A stretch of DNA of 64,000 bases from Nitrosopumilaceae archaeon (lineage in GTDB: Archaea; Thermoproteota; Nitrososphaeria; Nitrososphaerales; Nitrosopumilaceae). Position numbers and translations under genes: made by a program. The notes under the pieces were generated by a model that did no database searches, was not told the DNA's origin, and saw only the letters and a list, made by a program, of their open reading frames with translations. The stretch lies in the NCBI GenBank assembly GCA_965208905.1, contig OZ242365.1:704001-768000 (forward strand), read 5' to 3'. Positions 24,475 to 57,182 of this stretch are shown in pieces (position 1 is the first letter of the stretch; the number at the start of each line of letters is the position of its first letter).

Positions 24475-25950
24475 GGGAATTATATAGATAAGAACACAGC
24501 CACAGATGCGCGCTTATCCCTTTTCTGACGACTTCGTTGTATGGAGTGGAGCATGGCGGGTGTTGGCTTGTAGCCCTCCTTGTGCCCCGGCCGTCTTAGG
24601 ACGACATTCCCCGCCGCCCGATACAGAATGTTCCAGGCGGCATTGACATCCGCGTGGAATACCCTGGTACAATTAGTGCAAATGAATTTGTCGCGTGATA
24701 TACGCGACTCTGAATCTACGTGATCACACACATGGCACGTCTGGCTCGTATATTTGGCCGATGCCCCCAACAGCGGTATGTTGTGTATCTCACACCACTG
24801 CGCAAGCTTGCGCAGGAACTCCCCAACACGGTTCTCCCGCATTGAACGGTTCATGGCGCGTTTGTAATTCCCGCCATGTGTGGTCATGTCTTTTACGGAG
24901 AACGACTCGACCACAATTGCGTCCACACCATTAGTTATCTGCGCAATCGTCTGATTTATCGTGTTCGCAGCTATGTTGTTGGCCTTCCTGTATAGCCGCC
25001 TTATTTGGTCATTCAATACACACCACTTCCGGCCATGCCGTACCTTGTGGTCACGAAGGTTCTTGAGCGCGTCAATCTCCCGCAGGATTGCTCTATGGCG
25101 TGTGTTGTGTATTGTAACATTGCCATTTGTGTCGACGGTAACTGCCAAGTGCTTGCAGCCCACATCGACACCACGCATTACACCAGTATTGCGGTGCGGC
25201 TCGACCGGGACGCGCACGGCGATATGCAGCTCAAACATGTGGTCTGACGGCTTTGTATGCTTGTCCACCCGTTTGGTGACATCAACTATCTTGAATGAGC
25301 GCATGTCCCATGATACAGCGATGGGCTTGGCGGTCTCTACAATACCATATCCGGGGATATGGATGGTGTGCTCACCTTTTCTTACCGGCGGATTTATACA
25401 GCTAAGTATGATGCGGCCGTCTTTGCGGCGGTACGGCGCGTGGTCTGAGTTGTCATCTATAACCCTTCTACATGCGACGGAGGCATCCTGTATGGCGCCC
25501 CTGCCAAACGATGCGGGGTACTCGCGCAGCCATGTATGTTTGGCGCGCCACCCCGTAAGCTGCTTGAACATGCCATACTTTAATGCCCTCTTTGACGGCC
25601 CAAAATCATATGTATGGTAGTCATCGTCCAACGTACCTGATGTAAAATCCAGCTTGCCCGGTAGTTTGAAGGGCTGCAGGATGTCCACTACCACCCTCCC
25701 CATATATTCACCACCAAACAAATACTCTGATACGGCGCGGTTGTACACATGTCTGGATACATGGCCCATACGGTGCACCCACTCTGCAAACAACACATCC
25801 CTTCGTAGCGGTACCTTGACTATCCGTATCATGATGTGTAATACGGTATACTGGTATTTAAGGAAGAATGTGGCGCATAGGCATGAAATCCATGGTGGTT
25901 TAGGCGTTAACCAAAACCTCCACAGGTGTGTTCTAATCTATATAATTCCC
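24475..25950 (-). mobile_element. TIR-bounded non-autonomous element carrying tnpB (IS1595-like ends)
   Basis: 24-bp TIRs 24475-24498 and 25927-25950 (23/24); 8-bp TSD TTCTTTAT at 24467-24474 and 25951-25958. Confidence 0.9.
24480..25832 (-). CDS. tnpB: TnpB RNA-guided endonuclease (copy 2)
   Basis: GVDVG, VVE, TSQTCHVC, CTNC, HADVNAAWNI; stop codon lies inside the TIR. Confidence 0.92.
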   Translation of the reverse strand: MIRIVKVPLRRDVLFAEWVHRMGHVSRHVYNRAVSEYLFGGEYMGRVVVDILQPFKLPGKLDFTSGTLDDDYHTYDFGPSKRALKYGMFKQLTGWRAKHTWLREYPASFGRGAIQDASVACRRVIDDNSDHAPYRRKDGRIILSCINPPVRKGEHTIHIPGYGIVETAKPIAVSWDMRSFKIVDVTKRVDKHTKPSDHMFELHIAVRVPVEPHRNTGVMRGVDVGCKHLAVTVDTNGNVTIHNTRHRAILREIDALKNLRDHKVRHGRKWCVLNDQIRRLYRKANNIAANTINQTIAQITNGVDAIVVESFSVKDMTTHGGNYKRAMNRSMRENRVGEFLRKLAQWCEIHNIPLLGASAKYTSQTCHVCDHVDSESRISRDKFICTNCTRVFHADVNAAWNILYRAAGNVVLRRPGHKEGYKPTPAMLHSIQRSRQKRDKRASVAVFLSI

Positions 25951-26219: not shown

Positions 26220-27077
26220 TCATTTATTTGTCATCTCCAACTGTTCGGCAAATTCTACTGGTGTCATGTATCCGATAGAGGAATGAATCCTCTCGGTGTT
26301 GTAATCTACAAAGGCCTTTGCAATGATCGTCTCTGCCTCCTGATAGTTCGCAAACTCGTGCGGCCAGATGTATTCCTTTTTCAGCGTCTTGTGAAATGAT
26401 TCGACATGTCCGTTCTGCTCCGGCGTATTCTTGTAGATGAATTCATGTTTGCCGATGCCAAGGGCCTGAACCGCATGTCTAAAGTCGCGGCTCGTATACT
26501 GGTTGCCGTTGTCCGTACGCAATCGTAATTGTGAGCAGTCAGGTTTCTCTGCGGCAACCGCGTTGGTGATTGAGGTGATTGCAATGTCTCGTGTGGCATT
26601 GACATCAAACGCGTAGGCGATCCACTTGCGCGTAAAGCAGTCAATTACGTTGAAGCAGTAGCACCAGCCGTCTATACCGCACCAGATGTATGTGATGTCC
26701 GTCTCCCACAACTGGTGTGGGGCTTTGGGTTTGAAGAGCTTTTGACCCGCTCGAATGATGTCGTTTTTGGTATTTTGTGGCTGGATGTAGCCCATTTTGC
26801 GATATATCCGCTGTATCTGCTTGCGGTTCACCACAATTCCCGTATCGCGCGTTATCTGGGCCGCCATGCGCCGTGTGCCGTACGTGGGCCTCTTTCTGCT
26901 CGTATCTAGCACAGTGCTCAATATATCCGGATTCAATCCCATGTCTCTGGGCTTGGGTTTGTAGTACCATTGGCGCCTGGATACGCCCGCATACCCTAGC
27001 GACTTGCGCAGGCTCAAATGTTGTTCCTGCATGATTTTTACCGCGTTCAATCGTTGCTTGCCTCCAAGGTTTTTTTT
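26220..27077 (-). CDS. IS3 transposase OrfB (DDE), reached by -1 frameshift
   Basis: WETDITY, RTDNG, VESFHKTLKKE; A8 slippery run at 27070-27077. Confidence 0.9.
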   Translation of the reverse strand, partial: KKNLGGKQRLNAVKIMQEQHLSLRKSLGYAGVSRRQWYYKPKPRDMGLNPDILSTVLDTSRKRPTYGTRRMAAQITRDTGIVVNRKQIQRIYRKMGYIQPQNTKNDIIRAGQKLFKPKAPHQLWETDITYIWCGIDGWCYCFNVIDCFTRKWIAYAFDVNATRDIAITSITNAVAAEKPDCSQLRLRTDNGNQYTSRDFRHAVQALGIGKHEFIYKNTPEQNGHVESFHKTLKKEYIWPHEFANYQEAETIIAKAFVDYNTERIHSSIGYMTPVEFAEQLEMTNK

Positions 27078-27337
27078 AAAGCGTCGTTTGCGATTGTCAG
27101 ATCCCCTATGATTCGCTTTAGGTCGCCGTTCTCCTTTTTGATGGCCTTTATCGGATCCTTCTTTCCGTGATGGGTCAGTCCGGACTTGCCTGCGTCCATG
27201 AACTTTTGCCGCCAGGCTTGAAACGTTTGGGGATGAACGTTGTGCTTGCGGCACAGCTCGGCCGTGCCAATATTGGTCTTGATTGATTCCAAAACGATCT
27301 GGATCTTTTGGTCTGGAGTAAACTTTGTTCTTACCAT
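27047..27337 (-). CDS. IS3 transposase OrfA (HTH)
   Basis: KFTPDQKIQIV...AELCRKHNV...W plus leucine-zipper tail. Confidence 0.9.
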   Translation of the reverse strand: MVRTKFTPDQKIQIVLESIKTNIGTAELCRKHNVHPQTFQAWRQKFMDAGKSGLTHHGKKDPIKAIKKENGDLKRIIGDLTIANDALKKTLEASND

Positions 27338-36536: not shown

Positions 36537-37838
36537 TCAACGTAAGATGCCGGCCTGCGTTATCACAGATGTTGGCGGTGAACCGCCATTCAGAGGAGCT
36601 CTACTGAGATGTTCCTTGATGGTTGGACTTTGACGCCCATCCTTTGGACAGCCTGTGCCGGCCATCACGTCGTTAGCACTTGGGGGAAGCGTGCAAGTGC
36701 CAAGATGTATCTTTCCTCTCAAGACCACTCCGGCCTTGGTTTGCAGTGAATAAACGGCCTGCGCACGCTTACTCCACTGCACTGCATAAAAAGTGAATAA
36801 TATATTGAATGCCGCGTTTATATCAGCGTGCACCAGAACACCACAATCATGACACCGAAACTTACTGCTTTTGCGACATGTGTTTGTGCTGCCACACATG
36901 CAACATAGTTGTGAGGTGCCTTTCTGGTCTATTTCCATGTACTCGGTGTTATGTTGCAAAGCCTGCTGCGCTAGCAAGGCCCGCGCCTCACCACACTTAC
37001 TTTGTCGCATCAATCTATTCTTGGCTTTCTGACCCTTCCCTTTTGTGGTCATGGTGTGGAGATTCATGCCCTCCATGATGATTTTGTCACACTGTCTCAT
37101 CAGTTTCTTAGAGAACTTGCGCAGCTGGTCTTTCTGCTTATTCTCCATCTTTTTGTAGACTGATTGTAGCTGTGCATGCAGGCTGCGCCACTTGTGAGAA
37201 TAAAGTTTACAACGAGACATCTTTTTCTGTATTCGCGCGATATTCCGCAATGTGTCCTTCTCTCGAAGCGTAAGCATGGCAATACTGCCGTCTGACTTTC
37301 CAACAATAAGTGTGTGCTTGCCACCCATGTCAATCCCCGCATGTATACCGGTCGCTACGCGGTCCGGTATATGTTCACGTATAGTTACATGTAGTTCAAA
37401 TTGCCTTTCCTTATCAGCATGGTTTGTAACATCCACAAGCTTATATGACTGTGATGTGTGGGGGAGTGTACCTTTCTGCAGTTTGAAGGGCATGTTGCAC
37501 CTTGGGAGGTACACTATATCATCTTTGGACTTTTTACCCAACGGTATAGCGCTGTACAAAGGATATATCTTGCTCCCGTACTTCACATGACTGCAGCCTT
37601 CCATCGCGTGGCCTTCCTGGATTGCGCCACGAACCCAGGCCTGGGGAATGGTCTGAAGCAGTGTTGCTATTGTCATGGTGTCAAATACCGACAATCCAGC
37701 CCGCCGCGCCTCAATCCCCGCATTGAGCCACATATGTGATTCAGAATACATGGAGTTAAAGTACTTGGTGAGTTTGGTTGATGTCTTTAAACGGTACCGA
37801 AGGGTTCTAATAACGTATTGTGTACCATTGTACTTCAT
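36537..37838 (-). CDS. tnpB: TnpB RNA-guided endonuclease (copy 3)
   Basis: AGIDMG, IME, TSQLCCMC, CHDC, HADINAAFNI; shares VDVT...FELH with copy 2. Confidence 0.92.
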   Translation of the reverse strand: MKYNGTQYVIRTLRYRLKTSTKLTKYFNSMYSESHMWLNAGIEARRAGLSVFDTMTIATLLQTIPQAWVRGAIQEGHAMEGCSHVKYGSKIYPLYSAIPLGKKSKDDIVYLPRCNMPFKLQKGTLPHTSQSYKLVDVTNHADKERQFELHVTIREHIPDRVATGIHAGIDMGGKHTLIVGKSDGSIAMLTLREKDTLRNIARIQKKMSRCKLYSHKWRSLHAQLQSVYKKMENKQKDQLRKFSKKLMRQCDKIIMEGMNLHTMTTKGKGQKAKNRLMRQSKCGEARALLAQQALQHNTEYMEIDQKGTSQLCCMCGSTNTCRKSSKFRCHDCGVLVHADINAAFNILFTFYAVQWSKRAQAVYSLQTKAGVVLRGKIHLGTCTLPPSANDVMAGTGCPKDGRQSPTIKEHLSRAPLNGGSPPTSVITQAGILR

Positions 37839-53482: not shown

Positions 53483-54973
53483 TTATATAGTAGTGTGATG
53501 CTTGGCGCACTTTACATCTTTGAGAAAGTACGCCAGAAAGACATCCTTGTGGTCGTAGTGTATGGACGTAAAGCTGTTGTTGCTCAGGAATGCCATTAAC
53601 GCCTCTCCAAATGTACCATATCTATCTGGTGTATGAGAGACTCGTGCATCGAGGTGGTGGGAGGCCGGATACATGTCCGACAACTCCAATGGTATTATAC
53701 CCAGATATGGGTTGTATATGCAGATTTGGGCATCATCGGGTATCTTTGCATACTTCTTTAACAGGTATGCCGGTTTGGTTTGAGGCTCTGGCAGTACGTA
53801 TAATGTGTCTTTTTTGGTTCGAAACTTGGATATAATACGGCGGAACTCTACTACTTCGGGTCTGTACTGGTCTGTATGATCAAACAGAAAGATGGCCTTG
53901 TCTTTGAATCGAGGTGTACCCACATGTAGTATCGCGTTATTTCCAGTCAAGACTCGTATCGCCTCAAAGAGGCGGGGATGTGCTCTGGCCTTCTTTAATG
54001 TGTACTCCCAGAGGCGTCCCTCATAAATGGCCTGTCTTGTGGCATCCACCTCTAGTCTTATGGCTGCTAGATTGTGTAGTGCCAAAAGGTCTGTTCTCTC
54101 TTTTTGTTCTGCAGATATCAGCTCCGCCGGAGTATATTTGGTACAGACATCACAGTTGCACGGAAATACGCGAATCTCACTTAGGTTGCGTGTCCCGTCC
54201 TGTGTTATGTATCTGCCCTCCTTTGCGTACAACATGTATGATGCAGAGTCAAATGTATCACACCCCAAAGATATTGCCAGTGGTATTGTGATGGGATGGC
54301 CGGCACCAAATAGATGTAGGGGTATTGATGGCGGGAGTATGCTTCGCGCCTGTACTATCATGGATGCCAGCTTGTAATATTCGTACGACTCCATAAATTC
54401 TACTGGGCTGCCCAGCGCCATGATCTGAAAGCCATACTCCAGGAGACTCTTTGTTGAATGTTTTACCAAGTCTTGGTGCTCGCCGCCTTGTATGGGGCCC
54501 ACCCACAACTGGCCATTATCTTTGGCGGACTGTATGGTGTCATGACAGGCCTGTAGTGTTCTGGATACATATGATGATGCTGTATCATGCGGAAGGCCAA
54601 ACCCTGTTGGCTTGTCCAGTGGAATGGGGATATCTGTCATTATGCCCATCTCAAACTCGGCCATCTGACTGGGTGATATATCCAAATCCCCATACTCCAA
54701 CACTTGATAGCCTCCCGAGTCTGTCATTATGGGACCATCAAATCCGACTATATCATGAATGCCGCGCCGTATGGCCTCATCCCCCCACCGCTTCATTGTT
54801 ATGTATGCGTTGGTTATGATCATCTGAAACTTCATCTTCTTTAGCGTATCCCCTGATATGGTCTGCTTAACCGGATGCATTACTGGTATATAGGCGGGTG
54901 TGTCCACTATGCCATGATTTGTGTGCAGTCTACCTATACGTCCTGCCAGATCTGATTTTATTATCTCAAACAT
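53483..54973 (-). CDS. tgtA: tRNA-guanine(15) transglycosylase
   Basis: MTDSGGYQ, HLFGAG, DTFDSA, CNCDVC...H. Confidence 0.95.
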   Translation of the reverse strand: MFEIIKSDLAGRIGRLHTNHGIVDTPAYIPVMHPVKQTISGDTLKKMKFQMIITNAYITMKRWGDEAIRRGIHDIVGFDGPIMTDSGGYQVLEYGDLDISPSQMAEFEMGIMTDIPIPLDKPTGFGLPHDTASSYVSRTLQACHDTIQSAKDNGQLWVGPIQGGEHQDLVKHSTKSLLEYGFQIMALGSPVEFMESYEYYKLASMIVQARSILPPSIPLHLFGAGHPITIPLAISLGCDTFDSASYMLYAKEGRYITQDGTRNLSEIRVFPCNCDVCTKYTPAELISAEQKERTDLLALHNLAAIRLEVDATRQAIYEGRLWEYTLKKARAHPRLFEAIRVLTGNNAILHVGTPRFKDKAIFLFDHTDQYRPEVVEFRRIISKFRTKKDTLYVLPEPQTKPAYLLKKYAKIPDDAQICIYNPYLGIIPLELSDMYPASHHLDARVSHTPDRYGTFGEALMAFLSNNSFTSIHYDHKDVFLAYFLKDVKCAKHHTTI

Positions 54974-54993
54974 GTAACTGTAGAGATTATCAC

Positions 54994-55530
54994 CTATTTA
55001 TTAAATTCAAAGAATCGTTGCATATCTTTATTCTCTGATATTTGATGTAGCCATTGCACATCATCTGATTTAATATTGTATTTAATGGCCTGTAAAACCC
55101 TCTGTATGTTGTCTTGTATGGTGTTGTTGGTTGTATCTATCTGAGTTACCACACCAAATGTATTACGTGCGTCTGAGTATACTATATCTAGTATCTCAGC
55201 TCCTAAATTGTCTAGTATCTTTTGGTGTGAATATTTACGGTCTTTGTATATGTTGTATAGCTCGTAGGGACTGCGTCTTAATACTACTGTTTTTTTTATT
55301 ATATGTTTTTTTGATATTACATACGGTGCTAGATGGCCTACTATAATACTGGATTTTTGTATATTTATGATATCGGCAAGTCTGTCGGTATCTACCTCGC
55401 CATCAAATATGAGATTTGATTCTCTGGCTATAATATTGATGTCAATTATATCTAAATTTAATATACGCGATATGGCATCTGCAATTGTGTGTTTTCCAGT
55501 TCCGGGGCTGCCGGTTATCACATACGACAT
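54994..55530 (-). CDS. AK6/Fap7-like nucleotide kinase
   Basis: GSPGTGKH P-loop, IIVGH motif. Confidence 0.8.
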   Translation of the reverse strand: MSYVITGSPGTGKHTIADAISRILNLDIIDINIIARESNLIFDGEVDTDRLADIINIQKSSIIVGHLAPYVISKKHIIKKTVVLRRSPYELYNIYKDRKYSHQKILDNLGAEILDIVYSDARNTFGVVTQIDTTNNTIQDNIQRVLQAIKYNIKSDDVQWLHQISENKDMQRFFEFNK

Positions 55531-55617
55531 TATAATGTGTATTGCATCATAAAAAAATAAAACATTTTTGCATAACTACATTACAAATTCAAATATTATG
55601 GGTTTTAGAAATAATTT

Positions 55618-56047
55618 GGGAATTATCTCCTTAATTCGCAAACTGAAAAAACATGACACCTTTAGATAATGTAACACTATATGGTACAAGGGTAGCAAAC
55701 ACATCATAAAGATACTACGATACAAGGTGAGCACATACTCACATGTTACATACGTAGCAATATGATGCACTCTGAAGTGAACGCGGACTATGGCATATTG
55801 TATAATACAAGTATAGTAGAATGGTCAAGGCGTGCGCAACACAACATCAGACTATACAAGTCGTACGACAAGGTCGGACTGGCCTTGCAAGACAAGATAC
55901 ATCTCAGTAGATATATTATATCTCCAGTTACTAGAGACGGGGCTGATGGCGCAGGCGACCCTCAGCGACATCTTAATAGAGGCATCTCTGAGTGGCGAAC
56001 TCGCCAACAGATGTATGGTAGTTCTGCGAACTATGTATATGATTCCC
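55618..56047 (+). mobile_element. TIR-bounded 430-bp element carrying an internally deleted tnpB
   Basis: 23-bp TIRs 55618-55640 and 56025-56047 (18/23); 8-bp TSD AATAATTT at 55610-55617 and 56048-56055. Confidence 0.85.
55681..56010 (+). pseudogene. tnpB: tnpB remnant related to copy 3 (first ~20 codons plus 3' tail)
   Basis: YKGSKHIIKILRYKV vs YNGTQYVIRTLRYRL; HSEVNA...VEWSRRAQ...KVGLALQDKIHL vs HADINA...VQWSKRAQ...KAGVVLRGKIHL. Confidence 0.8.
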
Positions 56048-56087
56048 AATAATTTTATAAAGTTCTATCTTTGTGTAATGCGTGGAG

Positions 56088-57182
56088 ATGAAAAAGACTG
56101 CCATACCAGGCTTTTATAAGAAAACACCAGATGAACGTCTGGATATAATCTCAAATATTGCCAATCTGAACAAGACTGAAAGAGATGCACTTCGAGCCGA
56201 ATTAAATGTAGATGTGGCAGATGGTCTAATAGAGAATACAATTGGAACTTTTACACTACCACTGGGCATTGCTACAAATTTTAGAATAAACAACCGCGAT
56301 TATATCATACCCATGGTAATAGAGGAGCCCTCAGTTGTCGCTGCGGCATCTGCAGGAGCAAAGGCAACCGATAACGTCACAGTTACAGGTGGTAATTCAC
56401 ATGTAATAGGACAGATACAGGTTTTGAATCCGGATGCAGATGCAATTGCAAAAGTTCTATCAAGAAAATCTGACATACTTGATGCTGCAGCCAGTATACT
56501 CTCCGGGCACATGTCTGTTGTGGATGTATACAGTAGTATGCTTGATGTACAGTCAAGGATGCTAAAGGTGGAGATTGTAATTGATACTGGTGAGGCGATG
56601 GGGGCTAACGCAGTAAATACCACCTGTGAGGGTCTGGCCCCCATAATAGAAGAGATAACCGGCGGACGTGTGCTGTTGCGCATACTGTCTAATGCTGTTC
56701 CTGGTGTGGTATCTGCGCAGGCTCACTTTAAGACAAGTGACTCTGTCGCCAGAGATATTGTATCTGCATACGAGTTTGCCCATATTGACAAACTTCGTGC
56801 CGTGACACACAACAAGGGAATAATGAATGGAATAACTGCTGTGGCGATGGCAACCGGTCAGGATACTCGTGCCATAGAAGCGGCAGCGCATATGTATGCG
56901 GCCGAGTCTGGCGTTTATGGACCTCTCTCAAAGTGGTATATGCAAGATGATAGACTATGTGGCGAGCTACACCTGCCCATACGTGTGGGAACCGTTGGTG
57001 GCCTTACTACACATCATGATACAGCTGCAACATGTCTCAAAATACTGGGTAATCCTACCTCGCAGGAGCTGGCAGGTATAATGGTATCTGTTGGACTATG
57101 CCAAAACTTCTCGGCCTTAAGGGCACTATCTACAGACGGCATACAGAAAGGACATATGAAACTCCATGCGCGGCGTCTGTGA
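56088..57182 (+). CDS. mvaA: HMG-CoA reductase, class II
   Basis: ENTIG, EEPSVVAA, AMGAN, THNKGIMNG, GIQKGHMKLH. Confidence 0.92.
   Translation: MKKTAIPGFYKKTPDERLDIISNIANLNKTERDALRAELNVDVADGLIENTIGTFTLPLGIATNFRINNRDYIIPMVIEEPSVVAAASAGAKATDNVTVTGGNSHVIGQIQVLNPDADAIAKVLSRKSDILDAAASILSGHMSVVDVYSSMLDVQSRMLKVEIVIDTGEAMGANAVNTTCEGLAPIIEEITGGRVLLRILSNAVPGVVSAQAHFKTSDSVARDIVSAYEFAHIDKLRAVTHNKGIMNGITAVAMATGQDTRAIEAAAHMYAAESGVYGPLSKWYMQDDRLCGELHLPIRVGTVGGLTTHHDTAATCLKILGNPTSQELAGIMVSVGLCQNFSALRALSTDGIQKGHMKLHARRL

Follow-up and report, generated by a model that had tools for sequence, protein, structure and literature searches.

A tnpB-deleted transposon relic, probably of the IS1595 type, within a population of tnpB-carrying inverted-repeat elements in an ammonia-oxidising archaeon

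TnpB genes have been described as cargo of DDE transposons with terminal inverted repeats; some are solo genes that lie between the same ends and are mobilised in trans (Altae-Tran et al., 2023, PMC10691335). The consulted text of a review of 2026 lists 'ISL2, IS630, IS1031' as the DDE families concerned, treats TnpB on cut-and-paste transposons that leave a duplication as rare in prokaryotes, and characterises the elements of the IS200/IS605 family by subterminal hairpins and the lack of both inverted ends and a duplication (PMC13565253). According to a preprint, the palindrome-associated transposable elements (PATEs), which belong to the IS200/IS605 family, frequently encode an omega RNA for which TnpB has to be supplied in trans (Meers et al., 2023, PMC10055086), and in eukaryotes Fanzor genes have been reported inside inverted-repeat transposons (Bao and Jurka, 2013, PMC3627910). 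Here we describe an element of 430 bp at positions 55618-56047 of a 64,000-nucleotide stretch of DNA from a Nitrosopumilaceae archaeon (contig OZ242365.1; the whole stretch is referred to as the window), which lies between two perfect copies of the 8-bp sequence AATAATTT and holds the start and the tail of a tnpB gene. The genome (G000) is a single contig of 2,214,775 bases, of which the window comprises 704001-768000; its completeness is estimated at 99.6%, and it encodes archaeal AmoA, the host being an ammonia-oxidising archaeon. Based on the evidence presented below, the element is probably a decayed, non-autonomous element of the IS1595 type from which tnpB was deleted.

Inverted ends and a perfect 8-bp target-site duplication had been placed at 55610-56055 by a first-pass annotation of the sequence, and both were found there to the base (Table 1). 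The ends are 23 nt long and agree at 18/23 positions (5/23 differ), the right one containing a small palindrome, TAGTTC-TGC-GAACTA. Among inverted pairs of GGGAAT-type termini lying 150-4000 bp apart, counted over the whole genome, a perfect 8-bp repeat abutted 19 of 101 pairs and none in the shifted controls (n = 8, either side shifted), which argues that the duplication of the element is not due to chance. Its left end begins with GGGAATTAT, as do those of four transposase-encoding elements of the IS1595 family in the same genome, the inner parts of the repeats being different. These four autonomous elements measure 2.1-2.8 kb and encode proteins of 316-320 residues with an ISXO2-like DDE domain and an IS1595 zinc ribbon, which match DDE_Tnp_IS1595 with E values of 1e-40 to 2e-40 (and, for the one scanned, NCBIfam transpos_IS1595 with E 8.5e-52); genome-wide, DDE_Tnp_IS1595 gave four strong matches, those of the four elements, and five weaker ones above the cut-off. 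An 8-bp duplication is typical of the IS1595 family, and all four autonomous copies are flanked by one. Since no ISXO2-like DDE transposase frame is present inside the 430 bp, the element is non-autonomous, and the kinship of its ends identifies it as a presumptive relative of the IS1595-family transposons.

Two remnants of a tnpB gene, preceded by a TATA-like box, are found between these ends. They were compared with copy 3, a tnpB gene on the minus strand of the window (36537-37838), and its relatives in the genome. In the 5' remnant, the translation of 55685-55750 is identical to residues 3-24 of copy 3 at 8/22 positions and positive at 17/22 (pairwise E 5e-5), and this frame closes with a stop at 55763-55765; blastx against the N-termini of the open reading frames of copy-3 type gave 36-50% identity over 22 amino acids with E values of 0.15-8.9, not significant by themselves. 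The 3' remnant starts at the last zinc-finger cysteine and includes the region of the RuvC-III motif (HSEVNA, versus HADINA in copy 3); the translation of 55744-55965 shares 25 of 74 positions with residues 329-399 of copy 3 (pairwise E 1e-13), and tblastn of this tail over the whole genome gave an E value of 6e-8. Codons ~25-325 of tnpB (~300 codons, ~0.9 kb) are missing, and the promoter region, the start and the tail are kept. The TATA-like box, which was compared by eye with an alignment of the upstream regions of 11 copy-3-type elements, is a putative promoter remnant.

Table 1. Features of the element and of the duplication that flanks it (window positions; sequences of strand-specific features in the orientation of the strand given)
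Feature	Position	Strand	Remark
Target-site duplication, left copy, AATAATTT	55610..55617		Perfect match to 56048-56055
Left terminal inverted repeat, GGGAATTATCTCCTTAATTCGCA	55618..55640	+	Identical over its first 9 nt to the termini of the elements that encode the IS1595 transposase in this genome
TATA-box-like TTTAGATAA	55661..55669	+	Position of GCTTAAATA upstream of the start codon in copy-3-type elements
5' tnpB remnant	55681..55759	+	ATG at 55681, frameshift, ~22-24 codons aligned to copy 3 residues 3-24
3' tnpB remnant	55744..56046	+	101 codons, free of stops in G000, running through the right end
Hairpin H1, CAAGGTC-GGACT-GGCCTTG	55869..55887	+	Common with the 3' region of copy-3-type tnpB
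Hairpin H3, TGGCG-AACT-CGCCA (TGGCGAACTCGCCA)	55993..56006	+	Counterpart in copy 3 at 36573-36588
Right terminal inverted repeat, reverse complement GGGAATCATATACATAGTTCGCA	56025..56047	-	Agrees with GGGAATTATATAC of the IS1595 elements at 12 of its first 13 nt
Target-site duplication, right copy, AATAATTT	56048..56055		Equals the first 8 nt of any flank-derived guide

The remnants had been described by the first-pass annotation as the first codons and the 3' tail of a copy-3-like tnpB. The homology stands, the alignment to copy 3 being significant for both parts, but the remnants do not derive from copy 3 itself. Identity of the tail to the frames of copy-3 type was 34-39% by blastx (11 frames) and 33-41% in a six-frame search (13 places in G000), and no similarity to the other tnpB lineages of G000 was detectable; this level of protein identity argues for a parent gene in a separate tnpB lineage, here called X. 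The same annotation had set the remnants apart from the tnpB gene of the element at 24475-25950, and rightly so, that gene being 28% identical to copy 3.

Two-ended GGGAAT-type elements with an 8-bp duplication number 21 in the genome (19 perfect and two with one mismatch), counted with at most one mismatch in the repeat and at least 14/25 matching end positions, and the tips common to them are GGGAATTAT(ATAC). Of these, 15 carry tnpB, four encode the transposase and two are short and protein-less. The annotation had also anticipated that the pairing of inverted ends with tnpB is recurrent, which is borne out by the 15 GGGAAT-type carriers and, independently of this type of end, by the copy-3 lineage, where inverted ends of their own were found in 10/11 copies (11-52 nt, with sequences TGGGCTGTGACG..., GGAACTGTCCCA... 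and GGAGCTGTCAAATC...). The 8-bp duplications of this lineage are perfect in four copies and have a single mismatch in three, and three further copies with ends lack one; for copy 3 of the window, no inverted ends could be detected. Taken together, the GGGAAT-type elements and the ends of the copy-3 lineage indicate that the pairing is general in G000, and elements of copy-3 type are not classical end-less units of the IS1341 type. Past the right end of one of them (tnpB at 1691442-1692734), a long run of the pentamer ACTAC/CTACA was observed.

The closed genome holds 44 tnpB-like frames of at least 380 residues, and 55 of at least 150 residues with matches. In a tree of the 44 (the 11 shorter frames were left out), which is unrooted and in which long branches meet, GGGAAT-ended lineages of 15, 6 and 3 frames stand among the others, and the copy-3 lineage has one of the GGGAAT-ended lineages as its sister group (SH-aLRT support 100); altogether, at least four tnpB lineages have GGGAAT-type ends. 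Given that the remnants of the element are nearest to the copy-3 lineage while its ends are of the GGGAAT type, modules of nuclease and guide have been carried by more than one IS1595-like backbone variant in a single archaeon. A further trait of the tnpB carriers concerns their flanks. In the orientation of tnpB, the base 5' of the left duplication copy is G in 13/15 carriers, often within ATAG, ATGG or TATG (12/12 in the 24480 lineage, 1/1 in the 913845 lineage and 0/2 in the 352058 lineage), and of the bases at the mirror position, 3' of the right copy, only 3/15 are C. This G/ATNG asymmetry is more suggestive of a transposon-adjacent motif than of a symmetric preference of the transposase. 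The element itself has A just 5' of its left duplication copy.

Some members of the population carry other features. Two of the transposase-encoding elements (L012, G000:C1:1043578-1046414, and L013, 1770047-1772736) carry, as a passenger, an N6/N4 DNA methylase fused to an HNH nuclease domain, a frame that is confirmed by Pfam in L012 and is split over two frames in L013, where it was judged by the likeness of the translation. The second protein-less two-ended element (L019, G000:C1:341419-341790) measures 372 bp, has the perfect duplication TAAATTTA and holds weak remnants, on the minus strand, of a tnpB of the 24480 type, a full element of this type lying ~300 bp away. Within the window, a frame for an rve-type integrase (IS3/IS481-like domains rve, rve_3 and HTH_21) was detected at 26220-27254, ~270 bp from the right end of the tnpB element at 24475-25950.

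The 3' part of the element raises the matter of a guide RNA. By homology of position, 55744-56046 corresponds to a putative guide-RNA region, as it aligns to the tails of copy-3-type genes and stops at the right terminus. The shared hairpin TGGCG...CGCCA that had been pointed out before (H3) was recovered, and a second one (H1) was found upstream of it. In an alignment of the 3' regions of four X-lineage and eleven copy-3-type copies, H1 (CAAGGYC/GGYCUUG) and H3 (UGGCG/CGCCA) are present in all 15. H1 has seven pairs, with 100% of the cells paired and one pair changed on both sides, and its G-U pairs, seen in 11/15 rows, fit an RNA of the tnpB strand; in H3 four pairs were counted, with 98.1% of the cells paired and a C-G to U-A exchange in three rows. 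For both hairpins together, 157/158 cells are standard pairs, compared to 16-53% in slid controls, and 2/11 pairs show a compensatory change. No alignment could be made for the middle of the scaffold, and the count leaves out a third, internal hairpin that the copy-3 lineage has but that falls out of register here. RNAalifold on the mixed alignment of X and copy-3 sequences gave two helices only. No Rfam family matched the whole window at gathering scores in this region, nor 55500-56150 at E values up to 10; the matches obtained were one tRNA elsewhere in the window and three sub-threshold chance hits.

These features would suit a working guide-only cassette, in which the tnpB promoter drives an omega-type RNA (scaffold 55869-56047, with the right flank as the guide) that is used in trans by a TnpB of copy-3 type. 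The nuclease would cut unoccupied alleles, keeping or spreading the element, and its target would bear AATAATTTTATAAAGT. Such a function would be consistent with the promoter-like box and the 3' region being kept in the right order and on the right strand, with the two hairpins common to the copy-3 lineage, and with a single-sequence folding energy slightly below that of shuffles (z -1.9, versus z -2.1 for copy 3), and the concept is in print for protein-less elements of the IS605 type as described in the preprint text (PMC10055086). Still, it is very improbable for this locus. With respect to the copy-3-type RNAs, ~26 aligned columns are absent from the X copies and the 3' terminus is entirely different, being a GGGAAT-type end; the candidate partners are only 33-41% identical in the part of the protein that overlaps the RNA; the 20-nt right flank has no other match with up to three mismatches in the genome, that is, no second target for a flank-derived guide; the site is occupied in every relative seen, which leaves nothing for homing; and, as described next, the element diverges at a neutral or faster rate, with indels within the scaffold and mutated ends in relatives.

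The age of the insertion was estimated by comparison with G005, a sister species of the same genus, in which a 2301-bp query including the whole element was matched at 97% identity, at the same site and with the same duplication. The site is likewise occupied in the two DNA runs X5 and X11, where no contig skips the element. In the comparison of G000 with G005, 29 substitutions in 419 aligned sites (6.9%) and 11 gap columns were counted in the element, compared to 27/467 (5.8%) at the four-fold degenerate sites of three neighbouring genes. In G005 each inverted end is changed at 4/23 positions, including the outermost base of the right end, and the orthologous remnant frame carries one TAA stop. 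Run X5 shows five differences from the element of G000, and run X11 shows deletions of 1, 5, 11 and 5 nt together with changes in hairpin and terminal bases. The insertion would thus predate the split from the sister species, and divergence at or above the synonymous rate, indels and mutated ends point to an absence of constraint; the picture is that of an old, fixed insertion decaying at about the neutral rate. Two observations were made within the element in these relatives. At 55887-55912 the G005 orthologue differs by a 9-nt gap and a cluster of substitutions and is closer to the second X-type fragment of G005 than to the sequence of G000, which may be due to gene conversion between copies. 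In run X11, two contigs break off at 55679 and 55682 with unrelated sequence beyond on both sides; that strain may carry another insertion or rearrangement within the element, or the assembly may break there.

A number of observations weigh against regarding the element as a dead relic. Its 5' part, 55641-55760, has diverged less (4/119 aligned sites, 3.4%), the 101-codon remnant frame is still open in G000, the promoter-like box is retained and the two guide-RNA-like hairpins still pair (157/158 cells). The rate comes from one orthologous pair and two runs and is a coarse estimate. The assembled contigs of the RNA runs X16 and X17 cover 56091-56363 only, and lack of cover over the element proves nothing. 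Finally, a search of 31 related genomes with 54700-57000 turned up no empty site, that is, TTTTAGAAATAATTTTATAAAG once with the kinase-like gene beside the reductase gene, which leaves the duplication and the family resemblance as the evidence for an insertion. The pair of flanking genes is kept only in G005, where the site is occupied; in G008 unrelated sequence lies beyond the kinase-like gene, and in G003 the reductase gene has another neighbour.

The surroundings of the element bear on another possible function. Its left neighbour is a P-loop kinase-like gene (AAA_18; 54994-55530, minus strand) and its right neighbour encodes HMG-CoA reductase (56082-57182, plus strand), the insertion site being the AT-rich divergent promoter region between the two genes. 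The element ends 34 bp upstream of the reductase reading frame and has the same orientation, and its right duplication copy overlaps the TATA-like sequence TTTATAAA at 56053-56060. This position, together with the retention of the element at the site in G005, X5 and X11, could suggest domesticated regulatory DNA, in other words a relic that is kept since its promoter or ends aid the expression of the reductase gene or of the divergent kinase-like gene. We consider this hardly probable at all: retention of a neutral insertion over 2-7% divergence requires no selection, the element evolves at least at the rate of synonymous sites, and the TATA-like box sits in the flank and predates the insertion. 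One RNA contig begins at 56091, outside the element, which is a weak hint only.

Copies and possible partners were sought in this and in other genomes. A single two-ended copy of the element is present in G000, where right-end pieces of 28-250 bp were found at eight other loci (67-86% identity); in G005, the orthologous copy and a single right-end fragment were the only DNA matches. One of the eight G000 loci is a second derivative of X (L047, at about 1821163-1822087 of G000:C1). It consists of an X-type tnpB start region and a right end, with an unrelated 204-codon frame in place of tnpB that has no confident Pfam family (the best, DUF2787, with E 0.011, is below the cut-off); its left end is degenerate and no duplication was seen. 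At G000:C1:857100-857700, an X-type right-end fragment of ~200 bp adjoins a sequence that resembles a tRNA gene by eye. No intact tnpB of the X lineage is present in G000. Among 151 genomes of the family, matches with E up to 1e-5 occur only in G000, G005 and G008, and, the orthologue apart, all are genes of copy-3 type, none being an intact X-lineage tnpB. Longer relatives of the remnant were not found in a collection of 5.8 billion proteins, which is weak evidence, and a scan for the parent gene with exact patterns returned only G005 among genome contigs and no parent. The one match of a pattern on a metagenome contig was rejected as chance, as it lies in an unrelated GC-rich stretch.

Thus, the results do not bear out the suggestion of the first-pass annotation that this 430-bp unit may act in trans for copy 3 as a mobile guide-RNA cassette, and nothing shows that it works or moves as one. 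The unit has one two-ended copy, inserted long ago at a site common to the sister species and two runs; its divergence reaches or exceeds the synonymous rate, with indels and mutated ends, and its RNA region is far from that of copy 3. The supposed partner has no detectable inverted ends and is 34% identical over the tail, and an intact tnpB of the element's own lineage was not found. The idea behind this suggestion is, in turn, already in print.

Based on these results, the following history can be proposed for the element as a decayed IS1595-type relic. The ancestral element would have been a cut-and-paste transposon of the IS1595 family with tnpB and its guide (omega) RNA as cargo, and an IS1595-type DDE transposase acting in trans would have inserted the element into AATAATTT, duplicating the 8 bp. 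Either before or after this insertion, ~0.9 kb would have been deleted internally, with the loss of tnpB codons ~25-325. The remainder would comprise both ends of the element, the promoter region and, from the gene itself, ~24 codons at the N-terminus and the last ~100, which overlap the scaffold. Since the split of the sister species the element would have decayed at about the neutral rate; a nuclease partner from its own lineage would now be lacking, and it most likely has no function. A variant of this history, which concerns the order of events only and is compatible with it, holds that the deletion took place elsewhere and that the 430-bp miniature unit was then transposed here. Both ends and the perfect duplication are intact, as expected of such a unit, and the 372-bp element derived from another tnpB lineage, with its perfect duplication, is a second protein-less one in the same genome. 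We regard this order as possible though rather unlikely, as no other 430-bp copy exists in G000, where the relatives are pieces of the right end or a form of 0.9 kb that holds another insert, and as G005 has only the orthologous copy and one right-end fragment; the data give no order of deletion versus insertion.

By itself the element carries little weight: it is presumably a dead insertion, for which the proper annotation is transposon relic, neither gene nor functional RNA. As a fossil it is ordinary and has its value as a marker; the transposon population around it is the interesting part and merits a separate study. A broader proposal, which we find doubtful and improbable, is that the relic represents the guide-only end state of an unreported life of TnpB on backbones of the IS1595 type, not of IS605 or IS607, the cassettes having once been serviced in trans. 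It draws on the GGGAAT-type ends of at least four tnpB lineages, on the separate inverted ends of the copy-3 lineage, on the lack of Y1 and serine transposases in the closed genome, and on the G 5' of the duplication in 13/13 two-ended insertions of two of the lineages; if this G belongs to a transposon-adjacent motif, the guide-directed cutting of the empty site would work jointly with a DDE transposase. The population would be suitable to study whether cut-and-paste transposons that leave duplications also benefit from guide-directed homing.

As for the place of the element among described groups, Y1 TnpA moves the elements of the IS200/IS605 family, and neither a Y1 transposase (Y1_Tnp) nor a serine resolvase domain was found in the closed genome. 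Membership in IS200/IS605, in the tnpB-only (IS1341-type) group or in the PATEs was ruled out by the inverted ends, the duplication and the absence of Y1_Tnp from the genome. Miniature inverted-repeat elements, for their part, arise from insertion sequences by internal deletion, and the element agrees with them in its small size, inverted ends, duplication, lack of an intact gene (its remnant frames are broken or truncated) and ends as in autonomous relatives; unlike these, it is not multi-copy, a single two-ended copy being present in G000, and its remnants come from a cargo gene, not from the transposase.

The study of DDE-borne tnpB has six DDE-linked branches (PMC10691335); the name IS1595 occurs 0 times in its main text, its supplementary files may list it, and no account of an IS1595-borne tnpB or of tnpB elements of this archaeal group was found in the literature, on which supplements may bear. 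The IS1595 backbone and the archaeal host thus appear to be new for DDE-borne TnpB, as far as the main texts of the literature show. In other respects the systems are alike: as in those described in the main text of that study, in this genome a symmetric end is found within 250 bp of tnpB, other elements with like ends encode the transposase, and the cargo is seemingly transferable between backbones; the main text names IS630, whereas here the backbone is of the IS1595 type and tnpB itself is deleted from the element. With the PATEs, as portrayed in the text of the preprint (PMC10055086), the element shares the absence of proteins and the retention of both ends and of the guide-RNA region, and it would likewise depend on TnpB and a transposase in trans; it differs from them by its 23-nt inverted ends and 8-bp duplication, by a genome without a Y1 transposase and by the lack of any sign of constraint. 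The closest parallel outside prokaryotes is given by the Fanzor transposons, in which, going by the text of Bao and Jurka (2013, PMC3627910), a nuclease of the TnpB family is the cargo of cut-and-paste transposons that make duplications, as it is here; those elements are eukaryotic or viral, whereas the present population resides in an ammonia-oxidising archaeon on a backbone of the IS1595 type.

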